Source: an uncultured Brachyspira sp.
Lineage (GTDB): Bacteria; Spirochaetota; JAAYUW01
NCBI GenBank assembly: GCA_964454835.1
Contig: CAYVTU010000011.1
Coordinates: forward strand, 26,243 to 90,242
DNA: 64,000 nt
Direction: 5' to 3'
The position numbers and the translations under genes are program-made. Under the pieces are notes generated by a model, which did not search any database, was not told the DNA's origin, and worked only from the letters and a program-made list of their open reading frames with translations. How positions within the stretch are numbered: the first letter of the stretch is position 1; the number at the start of each line of letters is the position of its first letter. Of this stretch, positions 8,624-63,507 are shown piece by piece.

Positions 8624-8809
8624 AATTTTTTCCTATTTTGTAATCAATTGTCTTCAGAAAATATTTTAATTTAATTTATCAAAAAAGAAAGAGTTGATAA
8701 AATTTTTATGATAAGTTTTAATGATATTATTGTCTTATTTAGTTATTTTTCTGCAATTAAAATTTAATATAAGATAATTTAATGAGGTCTTATAAATTAT
8801 TAATTAGAT

Positions 8810-9150
8810 TGGAGGTGGGGAGAGTCGAACTCCCGTCCTACAAGGTTTGATAATCGATATCTACATGCTTATGAATTTTTTAATCTCGTTTATTTCAGGG
8901 AAAATCCCAAACCTGAAATAAGCCAGTCTGTAAATTTACTTTCATCTTCCAGACAGAGATGAAAGTTTGCTTCTGTTGTCGGGGGAAGTTCTGAAACCAG
9001 AAGCAATCTCAGACTTCCCTGCTGCGCTTAATTAGGCAGCAAGTGCTAATGAATTGTTGTCAATTCGTTTTTTTCTGCGGTTTTAAGACATACAGAAAGT
9101 CTGCATGCAATCCATTACCTTGCCTTACAGTCGAAACCAGATTCACCCCC
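8810..9150 (-). ncRNA. ssrA: tmRNA (transfer-messenger RNA)
   Basis: On the minus strand the 5' end GGGGGTGAATCTGGTTTCGAC… pairs with the 3' end …GGACGGGAGTTCGACTCTCCCCACCTCCA (a tRNA-like acceptor and T-arm; CCA is not encoded). An internal tag reading frame ends …GACAACAATTCATTAGCACTTGCTGCCTAA, i.e. …DNNSLALAA-stop. Confidence 0.85.
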
Positions 9151-39416: not shown

Positions 39417-40109
39417 TTATCTAAAAAAAGAAGCAAATGTGTTAAATAATTTAGAAGATAAACCATTATTTCCTGAATCGTTAAGGTAGCTATTTATAAC
39501 TTCTCCATTAATCATGTGTAGGTCATTTTTCAACAGATTCATATACCCTTTTACTACTCCTGAATTTGATTTATGAATATATATAATTGTTCCATCATCT
39601 TTTATTTCGACTATCAAAGCAACATGAGTAAATAGATCATCATTTTTTCCATTTTTATTTCTATCATAAGTATTGTCAAATATTATAATATCACCAATAT
39701 TAAAAGACATTTGACTTACTGAAAAATAATTATTTGCTATTAGATAAAGTTGGTGAACTCCTCCAAAAGGGGTCTGATCGACAAGATATAGACCAAGATC
39801 TACTCCTGCTTTATAATAGACATAAAATATAAATCCTGAACAATCAAATAGAAATGATCTTGAGTTAAATGAGAAAGAAGAAATACCTAACGATTGATTG
39901 GCAATTAACACTATTTTTTTTCTTAATTCATCCTGCTCTTCTTTATTAACTTGTATTTTGTCGATAGGTTTATTTATTATTTTAAATGAATAAAAATTCT
40001 TTATATATTCATAATCTCTATAATATTTATATGATGATGAACACCCAAATAAAAAAATAGATGAAAACATTGTAAAAATCAGACATAAGATAATCAATTT
40101 TTTTTTCAT
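39417..40109 (-). CDS. NlpC/P60-family cell-wall peptidase lipoprotein
   Basis: Lipobox LFGCSS, a catalytic Cys in DCSGFIFYVYY and a His in THVALIV. Confidence 0.6.
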   Translation of the reverse strand: MKKKLIILCLIFTMFSSIFLFGCSSSYKYYRDYEYIKNFYSFKIINKPIDKIQVNKEEQDELRKKIVLIANQSLGISSFSFNSRSFLFDCSGFIFYVYYKAGVDLGLYLVDQTPFGGVHQLYLIANNYFSVSQMSFNIGDIIIFDNTYDRNKNGKNDDLFTHVALIVEIKDDGTIIYIHKSNSGVVKGYMNLLKNDLHMINGEVINSYLNDSGNNGLSSKLFNTFASFFR

Positions 40110-40112
40110 TTC

Positions 40113-40694
40113 TTAAAATTCAAATATTTCTTTATATATCGGTTTTGTAGGAGTAAGTATAGATTGAAACAATTTAAGTTTTCCTAAGGAAAAATCTAAT
40201 TTTTGAACTTCAAACCCAGGTAAAGTCTCCCATAAATTAAAATTATTGAAATTAAAGTAACTAAAATTTTTAATTCTAGCAAGTGTCAAATGTGGGATAA
40301 ATCTTCTGTTTTCTTTATTAATTCCTATTTTTTCAAGAATTTTTTCAATATCTTTTTGATTCTTCTCTATTATATTTTGATTATTATGAATCTTTAAAAT
40401 CAAAACCTTTGGTTCTTTTCGATTTGGGAATGCATCCAATCCGCTTAAATTAAAAAGATATTCCTCTCTATTAAAATTAAAATTATGTTTTTTAAGAGCA
40501 TTTATGATTAAGTCTGGATTTTGATTTTCGAAAAATTTTATTGTTAAATGAATATCAGAGATATCTACATATTTTATATTGATATTCTTTTCTCTAGAAA
40601 TTTGTTGATCAAACTCTATTTTTATTATATCAATAATTTTCTTGAGCTTTGCCAGTAGAGCATCATCGAAAGTATAAGCTAGAAACAATCTCAT
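40113..40694 (-). CDS. thpR: 2H phosphoesterase: RNA 2',3'-cyclic phosphodiesterase (ThpR/LigT)
   Basis: Two H-x-T-x motifs (HLTIKF and HLTLARI) in a ~190-aa protein. Confidence 0.7.
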   Translation of the reverse strand: MRLFLAYTFDDALLAKLKKIIDIIKIEFDQQISREKNINIKYVDISDIHLTIKFFENQNPDLIINALKKHNFNFNREEYLFNLSGLDAFPNRKEPKVLILKIHNNQNIIEKNQKDIEKILEKIGINKENRRFIPHLTLARIKNFSYFNFNNFNLWETLPGFEVQKLDFSLGKLKLFQSILTPTKPIYKEIFEF

Positions 40695-40776
40695 AAAAGA
40701 AAATTTACATATTATTGAAAATATTCAATATTAAAATTATAATTTAGGAGGAAATAATAATAAAAAAATTGTCAAA

Positions 40777-41283
40777 ATGAGGTTTTTCATGATTAAAGAT
40801 AAAGTTAAATTATCTAATGAAGGATATAATATTTTTTTAGAGGCATTGACATATTGCAAAGAAGTTCTTGATAAAGGTCAAATTGTTCATACACGGGTAT
40901 TTTTTCCTTCAAAAGAGAAAGACGATATTTATTTTATTGAACTATCTAAATTAATAGATGAATTGATAGAAAAATTTGAATTAAAAAATCCATTTGATAA
41001 TAGAAAATCAGAATATTTTGAATTTATCAAGGAAACAGCTTTAGATATTATGAGGATGAAAATCAGCCAGGAATCGCCAGATCACTATCTTTATTTGACT
41101 CAATTTGAAGATAATTCTATCAATTTTATAATTAGAGACCCTGAATCTTTTGGTGTAACTAAAATAACATTAAAATATAAAAATAAAGATTTTGATATTG
41201 AAAAGATTGAGAATATGCCATCTAATCCTTATACAAACCCTATGAGTTCACTTTCTACTGAAAAAAATGATTTTTCTATTTAA
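40777..41283 (+). CDS. Uncharacterized 168-aa protein immediately upstream of rtcB
   Basis: Clean ORF with an AGGAGG-like SD (aatttaggagg). No recognisable motif (not archease: no HTAD). Confidence 0.45.
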   Translation: MRFFMIKDKVKLSNEGYNIFLEALTYCKEVLDKGQIVHTRVFFPSKEKDDIYFIELSKLIDELIEKFELKNPFDNRKSEYFEFIKETALDIMRMKISQESPDHYLYLTQFEDNSINFIIRDPESFGVTKITLKYKNKDFDIEKIENMPSNPYTNPMSSLSTEKNDFSI

Positions 41284-41407
41284 ATAAATATTTTATATTA
41301 TTGTTAAATATTCGATAGATATTTTTTATTTAAGTTATTTATTTGAGATATTTTAAAAAAAATAAATTAAAAGATAATAAAAAATTAAAAAAAATTAATT
41401 TAAAAAA

Positions 41408-42841
41408 ATGAAAATAGAAAAGATTAATAATAACAAATTTATCATAAACAAAACAGGAGAGATGAAAGCTCCTGCAATTATATATTGCAATGAACAGATG
41501 ATTTCAAATATTCTTTCTGATAAATCTCTTAATCAAATTATTAATGTCGCAAGTCTTCCAGGAATAGTAAATTATGCAATTGCTATGCCTGATATTCATC
41601 AGGGATATGGCTTTCCTATTGGAGGGGTTGCTGCTTTCGATAGTGAACAGGGAATTATCTGTCCTGGAGGAGTTGGCTTTGATATTAATTGTGGTGTAAG
41701 ATTAATAAAAACCAATTTGACAAAAGATGAAATAGAAAAAAATATTACAAAACTTTCATATCTTCTTTTTTCATCAATTCCTTCTGGTTTAGGTTCACAA
41801 AGTAATAAAAAATTTGAAAAAAAAGAGATGAAAAATTTTATTGATGACGGAATAAAATGGATGATTAAAAGAGGATATGCTGACAATATAGATTCAGATA
41901 GTATTGAAGATAATGGGGCTTTAAGTCAAACAGATTCAGAAATTATTTCGGAGGAAGCATTTAACAGAGGAAAAGATGAATTAGGAACTTTAGGATCAGG
42001 AAATCATTTTCTTGAAATAGATTATATCTCTCAAATTTTTGATAAAAAAATAGCAAAAGAATTTGGATTGTTTCCAAATCAAATTGTCATCTGGATTCAT
42101 ACCGGCTCAAGAGGTTTTGGTCATCAAATTGCAAAAGAATATATTGATAAAATGAAGAAAAAAATGATAAAAAATGGAATAAAACTTAAAGATCCAGAAC
42201 TTGTGTACCTTCCAATATCTGATCCAATCTCTCAACAATATATTACTGCAATGAATTGTGCAGCAAATTATGCCTATTGCAACAGACAATTGATAACTTT
42301 TCACATTAGAGAGTCATTTCAGAAGATTTTTAACAAAACTTGGGATAAATTAGGACTTTTTATTCTTTATGATGTATGTCACAACATTGCAAAATATGAA
42401 AATCACATTGTTGACAATAAAATTAAAAAATTATTAATTCACCGAAAAGGAGCCACACGAGCATTTCCAAGCCAGAACAAAAATATCCCTATGAAATTTT
42501 ATAATATTGGACAACCAGTTTTAATCCCTGGTGATATGGAGCGAGGGTCATATATTCTTGTTGGCACAAACCAATGTATGATAGAGACTTTTGGTTCGGT
42601 TTCTCATGGAGCTGGAAGAGTTATGAGTCGAAATCAAGCAAAAAAAAGTTTTGATTTTTCGTCTATACAAAAAGAACTATCTAGCAAAAATATTTTTCTT
42701 ATAGCAAAAGATAACACTTTAATATTAGAAGAAGCTCCCTTAGCATACAAAAATATAGATAATATAATAAATATCCTAATATTAAATAACCTTTCAAAGA
42801 TTGTAGCAAAATCTTTACCAATTTCAGTTGTTAAAGGATAG
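41408..42841 (+). CDS. rtcB: RNA-splicing ligase RtcB
   Basis: The metal-binding and GTP motifs of RtcB are present: MPDIHQGYGFPIGGVAAFD, GSGNHFLEIDY, HNIAKYENH and SVSHGAGRVMSR. Confidence 0.9.
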   Translation: MKIEKINNNKFIINKTGEMKAPAIIYCNEQMISNILSDKSLNQIINVASLPGIVNYAIAMPDIHQGYGFPIGGVAAFDSEQGIICPGGVGFDINCGVRLIKTNLTKDEIEKNITKLSYLLFSSIPSGLGSQSNKKFEKKEMKNFIDDGIKWMIKRGYADNIDSDSIEDNGALSQTDSEIISEEAFNRGKDELGTLGSGNHFLEIDYISQIFDKKIAKEFGLFPNQIVIWIHTGSRGFGHQIAKEYIDKMKKKMIKNGIKLKDPELVYLPISDPISQQYITAMNCAANYAYCNRQLITFHIRESFQKIFNKTWDKLGLFILYDVCHNIAKYENHIVDNKIKKLLIHRKGATRAFPSQNKNIPMKFYNIGQPVLIPGDMERGSYILVGTNQCMIETFGSVSHGAGRVMSRNQAKKSFDFSSIQKELSSKNIFLIAKDNTLILEEAPLAYKNIDNIINILILNNLSKIVAKSLPISVVKG

Positions 42842-49390: not shown

Positions 49391-51130
49391 TCAACAAAAT
49401 AAGAAATCTGTATATTTTATTAAAAATTCAATCGCAAGTCTTTGCGATTTTTCTTTATCACTATACTTAAAATAATAGTAAGAAACAATGTTAAAAAAGT
49501 AATTTTGTACTACTTCTCTATTATTTAAATATTTTTTATCTTTTTCAGTATTTTTTTCAAAAAAAATTTCAAGTTTTTTTTCTTTTATTTTTTCCCATTC
49601 TTCCTGATATTTCTCAAATAAAAACCTTTCTCCCTTTTTTATGCATGTAATTACAGATTTATTTTGAGTTGAACTTAAGTAAGTTTGTCTAGTATTATGA
49701 AAATTATAAAAATATGAATTAGAATAGTAATATTTTTTCTCAGCCATCGAAAAATCTATTCCATAAGTTTTAATTTCTTTAAATCCAAGATAATCTGCAA
49801 CAAGATATGAAAAAGCACCAACATTTTGAACTTCAATTGAAAATAAAGGAATATTACAGAAAAAAGAACCTAATAAATTTAATTTATTGATTATTTTTTG
49901 AAAATTAATATTTTTTAATTCTTTTTCTTTTCTATACATAATAAATGCTTCCACAAAACCTATTATGTCTTCAAAATATTTGAGTGAAAACAAATAGATA
50001 TTATTAAAATTTTTTAAAACCTTTTTTGAAACAGATAAAGGTACAATTACTGGTATTTTCTTAAATTCTTCTGCAAGACCAACCAACATTAAACTTAAAA
50101 TATTTCTACTATCAAGAATTATAATCAAATCTGGCAATATTTTGTTTGCTAAGAAAAAGTTTATTGCATTATCAACACAAATTACAAAACTACTTTTTAC
50201 TTTTCTTTTTTCAATTAATTCATCTTTAATCGAAATTTTATCCAATGAAGGAGAAGCTCCGACAATTATAGCAGTCTCATAATATTCTTTTTTCAAAGAT
50301 TTAATATTATTATTTTTTTTAATTTTGTCTACTATATCCTTGTTAGATATAATAGAATTAATGTTAGACAAAGTATTTCCTAATTCAATTTTAAAATTAA
50401 TTATAAATGATTTAATATTAAAAATTACTTCTTTTCTGAAATCATCCCATTCTCTTTCTAATTCATTTAAATTTTTTTGTAATAGACAATTGATATTTTC
50501 TTTTCTAACTATTTTATCTATTAAAATAGGATTAAAAATATTTGCGTACTCATTTATAAAAAATGATTTTAATTTTGGATAATTATTTATTCCTTTGATA
50601 TAAATATGGATATTATTATTTAAGAATATTTGATAAATTTCCATATAACAGCATGCTAGAAGAAATAGATCTAAGTCAAAATCTATTAATATAAAATAGT
50701 ATTTGGTATTTTTCTTATTTTCAATAATATCAAAATCTGAATTAATATTTTCATTTTTATTATTACTTATTGTTTTTAAGCCATAAAGTGAATATAAGAA
50801 TCCTATCCCAAAAATTTCGAAACATATATCATTATTTGTATATTCTTCAATTTTTATTGCTTCTCTTTTTGGATTATATGAAGAATGTATTTTTCTATTT
50901 GAAGATCTTTCAACAGGAATAAATAAGTTGTCTTCTAACTTAATAATCTCGTATTTTCCCTTTATTTTAATTATGTAATTGGCAAGCAAATTAAAATCAT
51001 CTTCTAAATCTATATTAAATGAAAGTTTTTCATTAAAATATATATTTTTAAGAATATCACTAAAATAAGGTCTAATCCTGGAAATTATTGAAATATTTTC
51101 TTTCAAAAGATTCTTATTAATATCAACCAT
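49391..51130 (-). CDS. Motility accessory factor (Maf/DUF115, MptE-like) probably involved in flagellin glycosylation
   Basis: Core motif AIIVGASPSLDK…FVICVDNAINFFLANKILPDLIIILDS matches the DUF115 signature. 579 aa. Adjacent to fliS. Confidence 0.55.
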   Translation of the reverse strand: MVDINKNLLKENISIISRIRPYFSDILKNIYFNEKLSFNIDLEDDFNLLANYIIKIKGKYEIIKLEDNLFIPVERSSNRKIHSSYNPKREAIKIEEYTNNDICFEIFGIGFLYSLYGLKTISNNKNENINSDFDIIENKKNTKYYFILIDFDLDLFLLACCYMEIYQIFLNNNIHIYIKGINNYPKLKSFFINEYANIFNPILIDKIVRKENINCLLQKNLNELEREWDDFRKEVIFNIKSFIINFKIELGNTLSNINSIISNKDIVDKIKKNNNIKSLKKEYYETAIIVGASPSLDKISIKDELIEKRKVKSSFVICVDNAINFFLANKILPDLIIILDSRNILSLMLVGLAEEFKKIPVIVPLSVSKKVLKNFNNIYLFSLKYFEDIIGFVEAFIMYRKEKELKNINFQKIINKLNLLGSFFCNIPLFSIEVQNVGAFSYLVADYLGFKEIKTYGIDFSMAEKKYYYSNSYFYNFHNTRQTYLSSTQNKSVITCIKKGERFLFEKYQEEWEKIKEKKLEIFFEKNTEKDKKYLNNREVVQNYFFNIVSYYYFKYSDKEKSQRLAIEFLIKYTDFLFC

Positions 51131-51185
51131 TTTTTCTTTTTTTATTTAATTTTTATAATGTTTCTGTATTTAATTTTGAAAAAAA

Positions 51186-53450
51186 TTAATAACTAAAATA
51201 ATTTAAGATTTCATTAAAAATTTCAAATAAAAACTCAAAAAAAGTCTTTTTTTCCTTAAAATTATCAGAATAGATAATATCAAATTTAATTTCATCCTCA
51301 GAAAAACCAGATTGTTTTATAATGAGATTAATTAAATTATTAAAATCAATTATAAAATCAGAAAGATTAATTCCAACCGAATCATATCCCGAAAGAAAAG
51401 ACTTTTCATCCAGTATTTTAAGAATTTTTAATAGAATATTTCTTTGCTTTTCTATGTAAAATTTAATATATTCTTTATTTTTTTTCAAAAGATCTTCAAA
51501 TAATTTTTTTAATTCAGAATTTTCACTTAATGTAAAAAGCATTAAAATTGTATCCTCATAATTTGATGAATTTTCATTCGCGAAGGCATCAACTATTTGG
51601 GGCAAAGAAAAAAACTGATCAAAAAAATATGGAATGATGAGAGTATTTTGGTGAGTATAAAGATTTTTACTCATAAGAGAAGATATTAATGAACTTGATG
51701 AAATAATAGAATTTTGAAGGATAAAAACAGGTATTTTTAAACTAAATTCTTTTAATAAAGATAATATTTTGATACCTTCAGATAATTCCCCACCAGGTGA
51801 ATCAATAATTAAAACTACTGATAGATAATTTTCTTTTTTTATTTTGTTTAAAATTTTTTCAACTTTTTGATATGTTAAAATCTCAAAATTCATTTCTGAG
51901 CTAGTTTTACTAGATTTATAATTTTTTTCTGATAAAATAATTCCTTTAAGATATACTATTGCAACATTTTGACTTTTATAAAATTTATTTATATTTAACT
52001 TATTATATTCAATAAATAATTTCTCAGTTTTTTTTATCTTTATTTTTTCTTTCTCAGAAATTTCTTTAATTTTTTTTATAATATCATCTTTATCTATGAT
52101 AAAATCAATCAATTTCAGCTTTAGTGCAATATCATTATCCATTATCTTCTTCTGAATTGATAAATTTAAAATCTCAGACTCATTTAAATTTTTATTTAAT
52201 GATATTATCTTTATTAAATAAAATAAGACCTGATTAAAATAATCTTTAAAAGACTCTTCTTTTATTATAGAATCTTTAATTATATTTGAAATTTTTTCTC
52301 TTGTAATTTCATTTAGAGAAGTTAAAGTAAAAAATAAATTAAATTGATTTATTATTTCATCAACCAAGTTATTTTGCAAACCTTGAGAAGAAATATTGAA
52401 ATAATCTAATTTATCTAAAAAAGCAAAACGGAAATTAGTGGCAAATGAAATATTAATTAAATCAGATTTTTCAATATATATAAAACAAAGATTGTTTTTC
52501 TTTAATTCTTTTATCAAATCAGTTAAATCTTCAATATCTACTATTTTTTTAAGATTTTTACCTGTTATAAAAAGAAATATGTTTCCTTTAATTTTAGATT
52601 TTTCTCTAAGACTTAAATATAGATTTGCATCTGGTTTTATTTCATTAAAATCAACTATATATAAATTCCCATTTGAATGACTATCATGAACATTCTTTTC
52701 TTTAGATATAGAAAAACCAAATGAATATGAGTCTGATTTTTCATCCAGTGAAAAAATTAGATGAAAAGAGTTAAATTTATTATAAAATGAAAAAATAAGT
52801 TTCCATATTTTTTCAGAGGAATAAGAAATTAAAAATGAGGAATCATATAAATCAACAAATAAATCAATTTCCAAATTTACATAATTAAAAAAAAGTTCTT
52901 CAATATTTATGTTTTGATAAAAAACAGAATTGCTAAAATAAAAATAAGTAGAGAATCTAATTTTTTTAAATAAATTTATTCCAATCTCAAATTGATAGTT
53001 ATAATTTTTTAAACTATAAAAATTATTATTTAAAGGATATAAAATCGAAAATCCTGAATCAAAATAACGAAATAGTTTAATGTAATATGATATACTTAAG
53101 TAGATATTTGAAAGTAAAAAACCAAAAGAAATTGGTAGATTATTTAGCTTAAAAAAAAGAGGAATTCCTACAAATATAATTGGATTATCCTGTTTATTAA
53201 AAATGGTATAACTAAATAAAAAGAAATTACCTAAATTTAGGGAAATCTGATTGAAACTATTTTCATAGAATAAGTAAGAAAAAGAAAATATTGTTTCATC
53301 ATAAGAATAATAAGCTAAATTTGAATAAAGACCAAATATATAATCAGATCCTGCCAATAAAGCCGGTTGTTGAGCTAAGACATTACAAGAATTAGTGAAT
53401 ATAAATATAACTATTAATATTAATGCTAAAATAATAAAAAGCTTTTTCAT
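51186..53450 (-). CDS. Signal-peptide-peptidase A-like (S49) protein with an unusual N-terminal domain rich in aromatic and Ser/Asn residues
   Basis: C-terminal S49 motif: VAIVYLKGIIL…VVLIIDSPGGELSEGIKILSLLKEF…IPVFILQNSIISSSSL. The N-terminal ~300 aa have a signal peptide and Y/F/S/N-rich segments with alternating hydrophobics. Confidence 0.55.
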   Translation of the reverse strand: MKKLFIILALILIVIFIFTNSCNVLAQQPALLAGSDYIFGLYSNLAYYSYDETIFSFSYLFYENSFNQISLNLGNFFLFSYTIFNKQDNPIIFVGIPLFFKLNNLPISFGFLLSNIYLSISYYIKLFRYFDSGFSILYPLNNNFYSLKNYNYQFEIGINLFKKIRFSTYFYFSNSVFYQNINIEELFFNYVNLEIDLFVDLYDSSFLISYSSEKIWKLIFSFYNKFNSFHLIFSLDEKSDSYSFGFSISKEKNVHDSHSNGNLYIVDFNEIKPDANLYLSLREKSKIKGNIFLFITGKNLKKIVDIEDLTDLIKELKKNNLCFIYIEKSDLINISFATNFRFAFLDKLDYFNISSQGLQNNLVDEIINQFNLFFTLTSLNEITREKISNIIKDSIIKEESFKDYFNQVLFYLIKIISLNKNLNESEILNLSIQKKIMDNDIALKLKLIDFIIDKDDIIKKIKEISEKEKIKIKKTEKLFIEYNKLNINKFYKSQNVAIVYLKGIILSEKNYKSSKTSSEMNFEILTYQKVEKILNKIKKENYLSVVLIIDSPGGELSEGIKILSLLKEFSLKIPVFILQNSIISSSSLISSLMSKNLYTHQNTLIIPYFFDQFFSLPQIVDAFANENSSNYEDTILMLFTLSENSELKKLFEDLLKKNKEYIKFYIEKQRNILLKILKILDEKSFLSGYDSVGINLSDFIIDFNNLINLIIKQSGFSEDEIKFDIIYSDNFKEKKTFFEFLFEIFNEILNYFSY

Positions 53451-61845: not shown

Positions 61846-63507
61846 TTATTTTGTCTTCAAAAATAGAAAAGCAAGAAATTTAGATAGAAATAAGATAGAT
61901 AATATAATTAAATAAATGATTATTGAATCTTTTGTTCTTTCAAATTCATATTCTTGTTGATTTTTTATTGTGTAAATTTCATTTATATCAATATTTTTAA
62001 AATAAAGCTTTTCACCTTTTTTATATAAAATTGATGTACTGTTTGTTTCTAAAATTGATAGATTTTTTATTTTATCTGAGTTGATATTATTAATAAAATT
62101 AATTTGAGAATTATTATTAGTATTTTGCACTAACCCTGAAAGCATATAAAAGTAAATTATAATCTGAGGTTTTAATATAAATTTACTATTAATGTTTATA
62201 GGATAAATATTGGTATCTTTTTTAATATCATTATTAGTATTGTATAATAGATAGTTTTCAAGTATAGGATATCCTGCCTTTTTTAGCAGATTAATTGTTG
62301 CTATTAAATTTTCTTCATTTGCTCCAATTAAAAATCCCCCTGTTAATTCTGGATCAATAATTAAATCTATGTCATTATTGTTAAATTCAATATTAAAGGC
62401 AACAATCTTTTTATCCTTTCTTGATGATTTTCTAATTTTATTTATATATTCTGAAATCGAATCCCCCTGAAAAAAAGCTAAAATTGGAATTCTTTTATTT
62501 TCAATATTAAAACCTCTCTCTTTAAATTTATTAAAAAAACTTTGATAAATTGAATCATTAAAAATAATAGATTTTAAAATATCGGGATATTTACCTTTTG
62601 ATTCTACTAAAAAGGGGATATTTGCAAGATTTATATAATAAGTTTGATTGAATAAACTGACCTTTAAAAGAGTTTTTTCATTTGTTTTAATAATAATTGA
62701 GTTTTCATTATTAAAATCTATTTTAACTTTATCTTCTGCCTTTATAAAAAGCTTTTTTTTATCATATATTTCGACCTTAGGTAAATAGCTTCCTTTAGAT
62801 TTTAAAAATAAACAAAAAATCATATCTGAAAGCGGTTCATATATGATAGAAATTGGATAAAAAAAATCTTTATCTACCTTTCCCATCTCCACAATTTCAA
62901 ATTTTTTCTCAATATTCTGATTAGTATTATAGGGAAAAATATCTGTAAGAAATATTACTTTTTTATATTTATTCAATTTTTTACTTTTAATTAATAGGTC
63001 AACATCAAAATTAAAAGGAAAGAAACTCTTTTGAAAAATATCAGTAAAACTTTTAGGATTAATTATTTTTTTTAGTTTATTGATGGAAACTATCTCTGAT
63101 TTACAATTTTTCTCATTGAATGTTGCAGCAAATATATCAAAAGATTTATAATTATTTTTATGAGTATAATAATATAAAACAGCTTTATCAAATGGAGAGA
63201 TACCATTTATATCTGTTTTCATCATTGAATAAGAACCATCTATGACGAAAGCTACTCTATTTGAAATGTTAATGTTGATAATAAGATTGGCAAAGACAAG
63301 AGAAAGTATTATTGCTATTGTGATATCAAAGATAATATCATAAAACAATTGTATGAGTTTTAATAGAATCTGCTTGAAAGATTGACTTTTGAATCTCTGT
63401 AAAAAAGTAAAAGAATAAGATACTCTTTTTCTTCTTATTTGTCTTACAAATAAAAGTATAAAAATCGGTATAAGTAAAATAGATAAAATAATAAAAAAAT
63501 TATTCAT
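61846..63507 (-). CDS. Membrane-anchored vWA-domain protein (BatA-like)
   Basis: N-terminal TM helix, a basic patch (RRKRV) and a second TM as in BatA. MIDAS-like motif FVIDGSYSM. C-terminal TM. Confidence 0.45.
   Translation of the reverse strand: MNNFFIILSILLIPIFILLFVRQIRRKRVSYSFTFLQRFKSQSFKQILLKLIQLFYDIIFDITIAIILSLVFANLIININISNRVAFVIDGSYSMMKTDINGISPFDKAVLYYYTHKNNYKSFDIFAATFNEKNCKSEIVSINKLKKIINPKSFTDIFQKSFFPFNFDVDLLIKSKKLNKYKKVIFLTDIFPYNTNQNIEKKFEIVEMGKVDKDFFYPISIIYEPLSDMIFCLFLKSKGSYLPKVEIYDKKKLFIKAEDKVKIDFNNENSIIIKTNEKTLLKVSLFNQTYYINLANIPFLVESKGKYPDILKSIIFNDSIYQSFFNKFKERGFNIENKRIPILAFFQGDSISEYINKIRKSSRKDKKIVAFNIEFNNNDIDLIIDPELTGGFLIGANEENLIATINLLKKAGYPILENYLLYNTNNDIKKDTNIYPININSKFILKPQIIIYFYMLSGLVQNTNNNSQINFINNINSDKIKNLSILETNSTSILYKKGEKLYFKNIDINEIYTIKNQQEYEFERTKDSIIIYLIILSILFLSKFLAFLFLKTK

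Follow-up and report, generated by a model that had tools for sequence, protein, structure and literature searches.

Does the gene order thpR/orphan/rtcB, found in an uncultured Brachyspira sp. (Spirochaetota; JAAYUW01), represent a dedicated RNA-repair module, or have these genes come to lie next to each other in a single lineage? The locus encodes the RNA 2',3'-cyclic phosphodiesterase ThpR, the RNA ligase RtcB and, between them, an orphan protein for which we use the working name UNK, and lies in a stretch of 64,000 nucleotides (hereafter the window; contig CAYVTU010000011.1, positions 26,243–90,242, of GenBank assembly GCA_964454835.1), which is AT-rich with a GC content of about 20–32%. 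All three open reading frames (ORFs) were confirmed where an initial annotation had placed them, with thpR on the reverse strand and the orphan ORF and rtcB on the forward strand. That annotation proposed UNK to be a lineage-specific cofactor or regulator of RtcB, or part of a toxin-damage response. Our analyses point, with moderate confidence, to a different reading: the arrangement would be a lineage-specific juxtaposition and not a dedicated RNA-repair module, and UNK a non-enzymatic binder with a function independent of the position of rtcB.

In the core Exilispira clade (loci L001–L005, L025, L026, and L029), UNK always immediately precedes rtcB and shares its strand. As the block from HtrA or OTCase through livKHM is wholly syntenic in this clade, which indicates inheritance and not repeated selection, this adjacency carries little information. 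Outside the core clade, rtcB is absent from all seven UNK contexts that are visible, and these contexts differ from each other. The family member P0013 neighbors a divergently encoded dehydrogenase, with the contig ending 17 bp after the stop codon; P0014 is found with an HD-domain protein and an RlmI-like methyltransferase, P0015 with a PAS-like ORF plus TetR and with a DHH protein, P0017 with adenylosuccinate lyase and GATase, P0019 with two serpins, a caspase-like peptidase, and GNAT, P0021 with a radical-SAM protein and a beta-lactamase-fold protein, and P0022 with an alkaline phosphatase. P0015 and P0019 are paralogs encoded at unrelated sites in one genome (GCA_013177895.1).

The sister lineage, represented by P0011, provides the closest comparison. 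Loci L020 and L027 both have thpR upstream of an intact UNK. L027 and L028 align over 527 bp with 99.2% identity, an alignment that takes in all 236 bp available after the UNK stop codon in L027, and in L028 the 481-bp spacer after UNK leads into livK, with neither rtcB nor an rtcB remnant. UNK of the P0011 lineage is still under purifying selection (dN/dS, the ratio of nonsynonymous to synonymous substitution rates, of 0.077). The sister lineage appears, from these contigs, to encode an intact and constrained UNK followed by livK, with no rtcB at the site. The reverse comparison gave a similar picture: the closest RtcB outside the clade (53% identity) is encoded between aminotransferase and AP-endonuclease-2 genes at a locus without UNK, ThpR, or archease. 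Neither UNK nor ThpR is encoded within 5–6 kb of this rtcB or of the rtcB genes at two archaeal (Woesearchaeota) loci, the only ones returned by a genome scan with low-complexity RtcB peptide patterns, and a hidden Markov model of the UNK family found no copy at any of the three foreign loci. Adjacency of UNK and rtcB that recurs in distant genomes beyond shared synteny was found in none of the seven contexts and at none of the three loci. The expectation that homologues of UNK would be found beside rtcB in other genomes was not borne out, given that all seven contexts outside the core clade and the sister-lineage site lack it.

The rates of evolution also bear on this question. Between members of the clade, dN/dS is 0.03–0.07 for UNK and 0.02–0.056 for LivK, LivH, and OTCase, with 0.10–0.13 for RtcB and 0.18–0.52 for ThpR. 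Comparing the window with L001, OTCase and LivK are each 95% identical, followed by LivH (93%), HtrA (86%), UNK (78%), NlpC (70%), RtcB (68%), and ThpR (51%). UNK is therefore better conserved than either RtcB or ThpR, and these values indicate it to be a real gene under strong purifying selection; that it is far more constrained than RtcB counts against UNK being a helper of RtcB. RtcB is only 67–68% identical between species in which the flanking transporter proteins are 90–95% identical (LivK 91–95%), a divergence compatible with horizontal acquisition followed by relaxed constraint. Two further observations concern the enzymes themselves: the nearest RtcB relatives outside the clade are 53% identical, with no other Brevinematales RtcB among the best 120 matches, and ThpR is very weakly constrained, being 51% identical between species whose LivK proteins are 95% identical.

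UNK, which the initial annotation called unannotatable, could not be placed in any described family, and there was no match to it in Pfam, NCBIfam, PADLOC, PHROG, or PDB sequences. A first word-index search retrieved 11 relatives with 63–100% identity, one of them labeled Exilispira sp.; HMMER, run exhaustively with a profile over 1.84 billion cluster representatives, matched 12 proteins, 10 of which are more distant (23–41% identity). A second word-index search with a broadened profile gave 15 matches, nothing new among them, including one labeled Brevinematales bacterium, and a metagenome scan with alignment A3 gave no matches. Altogether the family amounts to about 20 sequence clusters, with Exilispira sp. 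and Brevinematales bacterium as the sole source names. Since exhaustive profile and word-index searches yield so few members, we take the family to be real but tiny, with both named members in the Brevinematales. No additional UNK paralogs were found in the window or near the foreign rtcB genes, and nothing on the thpR/UNK/rtcB locus was found in the Exilispira literature.

The homologues also allow the start of UNK to be reconsidered. The initial annotation described a protein of 168 amino acids from the maximal ORF (40777–41283); the coordinates of that ORF hold, whereas a length of 164 amino acids is the likelier one. All homologues begin at the equivalent of M5 (MIKDK...), and a Shine-Dalgarno sequence, TGAGG or a close variant, is kept 6–7 nt before this ATG in the clade loci, and for these two reasons the start is most likely at 40789. 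The predicted product is a hydrophilic protein of about 19 kDa with a pI of 5.0 and without a signal peptide. Y76 and D117 are the sole residues invariant throughout the family, T35, F63, and Y100 are nearly so, and conserved residues are found in RT[RK], DRxSEY, SPxxY, and [IV]RD. Judged by residue conservation, this does not look like a catalytic constellation, the invariant set expected for an enzyme being absent.

Structure prediction, which had been suggested together with the initial annotation, gave confident AlphaFold2 (AF2) models of UNK and no significant fold relative. Two independent runs, one on a close alignment (pLDDT 80.9, pTM 0.76) and one on a diverse alignment (pLDDT 83.5, pTM 0.79), gave the same topology of a1-b1-b2-a2-a3-b3-b4-b5-b6 followed by a C-terminal tail, which is of low confidence in both models. 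Foldseek searches of the models against PDB and BFVD found no relative at E≤0.001. Within or beside the low-confidence segment of both models lies the peptide PSNPYTNP, a core that is invariant in all tail-bearing members down to 41% identity and is common to the Exilispira branch and P0013 (41% identity); distant members with a full-length C-terminus mostly have another conserved tail, of the type PFH-x-[ST]-[RK]. UNK of the Exilispira branch is accordingly modeled as having a disordered tail with an invariant PSNPYTNP. Synonymous codons within the motif vary freely, so the constraint acts on the peptide; this variation also led us to reject a role of the motif at the DNA level, for example as a promoter of rtcB inside the UNK gene. 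A degenerate DNA pattern for the motif matched five true loci and, by chance, two others, which were discarded: in L023 a stop codon lies just ahead of the motif, and in L024 the match is antisense to a 1478-aa ORF in GC-rich DNA.

Both enzymes flanking UNK are ordinary, intact, and fast-evolving accessory enzymes of known families, in agreement with their identification in the initial annotation. ThpR scores 97.5 bits against the NCBIfam equivalog TIGR02258, RNA 2',3'-cyclic phosphodiesterase (cutoff 65.7), matches the Pfam family PF02834 (LigT_PEase) with an E value of 1.4e-14, and has both HxT motifs, as HLT at residues 49 and 135. RtcB covers the full PF01139 profile (positions 1–426 of 426; E 2.8e-160, 534.6 bits with a cutoff of 27), and its five catalytic motifs DINCG, GSGNH, HTGSRG, CHN, and HGAGR are intact at residues 92, 196, 231, 324, and 400. 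These motifs hold what we take to be the metal-binding Asp, Cys, and His residues and the GMP-accepting His, going by P. horikoshii RtcB structures. ThpR leaves 2'-phosphate ends, which RtcB is not known to accept as substrates, and the two enzymes therefore form no obvious pathway. The proximity of thpR and rtcB is a single evolutionary event shared by descent in one clade and is not recurrent; thpR was not seen beside rtcB at the three other rtcB loci examined.

The immediate neighbor of thpR on its other side is a gene for an NlpC/P60 lipoprotein, which lies on the same strand at a distance of 3 nt and is its probable operon partner; the pairing is retained in L001, L003, L020, L025, and L029, the P0011 lineage included. 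As an observation in its own right, the pair (39417–40694, reverse strand) makes for an odd operon, joining a cytoplasmic RNA phosphodiesterase with a cell-wall hydrolase. An HtrA gene follows downstream of the NlpC/P60 gene, and an ABC transporter of the livK/H/M/G/F type is encoded downstream of rtcB. The features of the locus are listed in table 1.

Table 1. Positions of genes and sequence elements at the thpR/UNK/rtcB locus, numbered from the first nucleotide of the window
Feature	Position	Strand	Remarks
NlpC/P60-type lipoprotein gene	39417–40109	−	PF00877 (E 1e-6); N-terminal lipobox LFGC
thpR, 2H-family RNA 2',3'-cyclic phosphodiesterase, 193 aa	40113–40694	−	TIGR02258, PF02834, HxT motifs
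Putative sigma-70-like promoter, TTGAAA-17-TATAAT	40715–40743	+	11/12 consensus positions; points to UNK and rtcB
Shine-Dalgarno sequence TGAGG	40778–40782	+	6 nt before the likely UNK start
UNK, orphan acidic cytoplasmic protein, 164 aa	40789–41283	+	Maximal ORF from 40777, 168 aa
Coding region of the UNK C-terminal peptide E-N-M-P-S-N-P-Y-T-N-P-M	41209–41244	+	
UNK–rtcB spacer, 124 bp	41284–41407	+	6% GC; without terminator-like or promoter-like site
rtcB, long-type 3'-phosphate/5'-hydroxyl RNA ligase, 477 aa	41408–42841	+	PF01139, catalytic motifs

A promoter function is inferred for the element at 40715–40743, of which the hexamers and the 17-nt spacing are kept in six of seven clade loci; the length of the thpR–UNK spacer varies between 89 and 440 bp among the clade loci. 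The orthologous spacers between UNK and rtcB range from 22 to 304 bp, with AT-rich repeat expansions and no common conserved element, and in two species they measure 22 and 30 bp, which is too short for a promoter. Given the conserved promoter, the lack of a terminator and spacers as short as 22–30 bp, UNK and rtcB are likely to be co-transcribed in the core Exilispira clade.

Further features of these intergenic regions were observed. A 14-bp palindrome, TTGAA-N4-TTCAA (40715–40728), overlaps the −35 hexamer of the conserved promoter, and its right half with the flanking sequence (ATTCTTCAAC) is retained even in L020, the most divergent locus. The block of promoter and palindrome is always situated about 20 nt from the thpR start codon, and 45 to 400 nt from UNK; with its Crp/Fnr-like TTGA-N6-TCAA core, the palindrome could be the operator of some regulator. 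The spacers around UNK contain lineage-specific AT-rich tandem-repeat expansions (L029:2139–2316, L001:6484–6787, and L025:7053–7425, orthologues of positions 41284–41407 and 40695–40788 of the window), for instance (AAACTAAAATG)n in L029 or, in L025, an A-rich tract of 370 bp. Contigs L007 and L020 both stop 25 bp or less from the UNK stop codon, a sign that assemblies may be interrupted by low-complexity spacer DNA.

If the locus is a lineage-specific juxtaposition, thpR would most likely be transcribed together with the NlpC/P60 lipoprotein gene, and the conserved sigma-70-type promoter would most likely drive a two-gene transcript of UNK and then rtcB, in the core Exilispira clade only. 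UNK, from a small family apparently confined to the Brevinematales, would be a soluble, acidic alpha+beta binding or adaptor protein without enzymatic activity, its tail docking onto a partner, and its function would be older than, and independent of, its place beside rtcB. The ligase gene would either have entered the site between UNK and livK in the core clade or have been lost from it in the sister lineage, UNK having been kept under strong selection whichever way rtcB came or went, and the core-clade rtcB would probably ride on the UNK promoter. We suggest that annotations should not perpetuate the cluster as an "RNA-repair operon," and that the UNK family, a tiny, strongly constrained, and structurally unassigned orphan, could enter databases as a domain of unknown function.

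Several points weigh against this interpretation. UNK and rtcB lie close together on the same strand and are probably co-transcribed in every core-clade genome in which the downstream side is visible, and genes sharing an operon tend to be linked in function. Only the branch that holds every rtcB-adjacent copy of UNK has the PSNPYTNP tail, and for P0013, the deepest tail-bearing member, the end of the contig 17 bp after the stop codon hides the downstream side. The key sister-lineage locus L028 is a metagenome contig of 1.5 kb with a rearranged or chimeric other end and an N-terminally truncated UNK; what it documents is a lack of rtcB at this one site and not genome-wide. Likewise, the distant members were judged for rtcB by their visible neighborhoods. 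Promoter-like sites are no commoner here than in shuffled sequence, leaving cross-species conservation as the sole support for the promoter. Finally, the term binding protein is inferred for UNK from the absence of catalytic signatures and not from positive evidence.

A first alternative is that UNK is a clade-specific partner of RtcB, with which it would share a transcript and onto which it would dock via PSNPYTNP, acting as a regulator, as a chaperone, or as an activator in the manner of archease. The gene directly precedes rtcB on the same strand at all core-clade loci, with short gaps and a conserved promoter, the tail motif, an innovation of one branch of the family, is under constraint as a peptide, and UNK, with a pI of 5.0, resembles archease in being a small, acidic protein; archease itself was not found in the window. 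The initial annotation held that UNK itself is not archease, and this was confirmed: neither UNK nor any of 14 family members matched PF01951 (archease) at E≤1, PDB sequence searches of UNK returned no archease chains at E≤10, archease was absent from every fold-search list, and the HTAD motif occurs neither in UNK nor in any of the six reading frames of the window, the nearest string in UNK being HTRV (R-T-[RK] in the rest of the family). A partner of RtcB would thus have to lack any sequence or fold relation to archease, and would have to be reconciled with family members that are never beside rtcB outside the core clade, with a sister lineage that appears to have an intact, constrained UNK without an adjacent rtcB, with the closest extra-clade RtcBs having no UNK nearby, and with UNK being two to three times more constrained than RtcB. 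We consider such a partnership unlikely. Of the cofactor or regulator role first proposed, the shared strand, the conserved promoter, and the gaps of 22–30 bp in the core clade stand, whereas the homologues elsewhere, which have no rtcB, do not fit it. A specific version, in which UNK is a Brevinematales-specific alpha+beta protein, a previously unrecognized and non-homologous functional analogue of archease, that gained the PSNPYTNP docking peptide in Exilispira and there came to activate or regulate a long-type RtcB acquired horizontally and co-transcribed with it, appears distinctly improbable. Were UNK to modulate RtcB, the turnover problem of this ligase would have been solved twice, by archease and by a protein unrelated to it, and UNK would offer a way into the study of bacterial RNA repair in a deeply branching lineage of spirochaetes. 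Like the RtcB–archease pair of archaea, eukaryotes, and some bacteria, the locus has a small acidic protein beside a long-type RtcB, possibly co-expressed with it; it differs in that UNK has no PF01951 match, HTAD, or archease-like fold, and in that its link with rtcB is limited to one genus-level clade.

The other two alternatives involve thpR. UNK may be tied to the divergent thpR–nlpC/P60 unit, for example by modulating the operon or its products via the shared intergenic region, and indeed its pairing with thpR is wider than that with rtcB, holding in L020 and L027 where rtcB appears absent, with the promoter and palindrome always about 20 nt from the thpR start. Yet UNK has no recognizable DNA-binding domain, P0013 and all more distant members are without an adjoining thpR, and ThpR is weakly constrained as opposed to the strongly constrained UNK, so that we give this explanation little credence. 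Even less can be said for the three genes being a ribotoxin-damage, toxin–antitoxin, or anti-phage RNA-repair module with UNK as a sensor, antitoxin, or immunity component, which we regard as highly improbable: PADLOC models match none of the three proteins, searches of UNK against PHROGs, phages, and plasmids gave no match, the adjoining genes encode no nuclease or toxin, and the locus lies in a stable housekeeping block and not in an island. A defense, toxin–antitoxin, or mobile-element origin was rejected for want of any match in PADLOC, PHROGs, plasmids, phages, or BFVD, and the ribotoxin or VapC-type damage-response module envisaged by the initial annotation finds no match among defense or toxin–antitoxin models.

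Comparison with other known systems also sets the locus apart. It shares with the rtcBA operon of Escherichia coli and its sigma-54 activator RtcR the RtcB ligase for 2',3'-cyclic-phosphate or 3'-phosphate ends, but differs in having a promoter of the sigma-70 type and no rtcA or rtcR; rtcA, rtcR, and archease were found neither among the neighbors nor among size-matched ORFs of the 64-kb window, which fall into other families, so that the absence of rtcA and rtcR noted earlier holds over this range. ThpR falls under the same equivalog model as the E. coli ThpR/LigT 2H phosphoesterase and has both HxT motifs, but is paired here with an NlpC/P60 lipoprotein gene and reaches a dN/dS of up to 0.52. 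RtcB-centered RNA-repair operons are said, in a survey by Burroughs and Aravind from 2016, to be defined by associations that recur across distant genomes. As in those operons, rtcB is found here beside another RNA-end enzyme and a small uncharacterized gene; here, instead, the arrangement belongs to a single lineage and is embedded in conserved housekeeping synteny.

Some additional observations were made on the neighborhoods of the UNK family and on the remainder of the window. UNK members are found beside phosphoesterases of several kinds at L006, L008, L016, and in the window (HD, PHP plus metallophosphatase, DHH, alkaline phosphatase, and the 2H protein ThpR); this was noticed post hoc on very few loci, may be due to chance, and we make no claim from it. 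In the Brevinematales bacterium GCA_013177895.1, the UNK paralog P0019 is immediately preceded on its own strand, across a gap of 29 bp, by a bacterial serpin–caspase cluster (L014:4116–7972), in which a tandem pair of serpin genes leads into a caspase-like Peptidase_C14 gene. Elsewhere in the window, an ORF of 553 amino acids (61846–63507, reverse strand) has no Pfam family at E≤1e-5, and the stretch of lowest GC content (0.20; 49391–53450, reverse strand), which contains an ORF of 754 amino acids and a gene for an MptE-like protein of 579 amino acids, could represent an island for glycosylation or flagellin modification. The window also contains a tmRNA gene (8809–9150, reverse strand; 159.5 bits with Rfam), for which ARAGORN predicts the tag peptide AEKNELTTIH, without the usual hydrophobic Ala-Ala ending at the C-terminus; either the degradation tag is an unusual one or the resume codon was placed wrongly.

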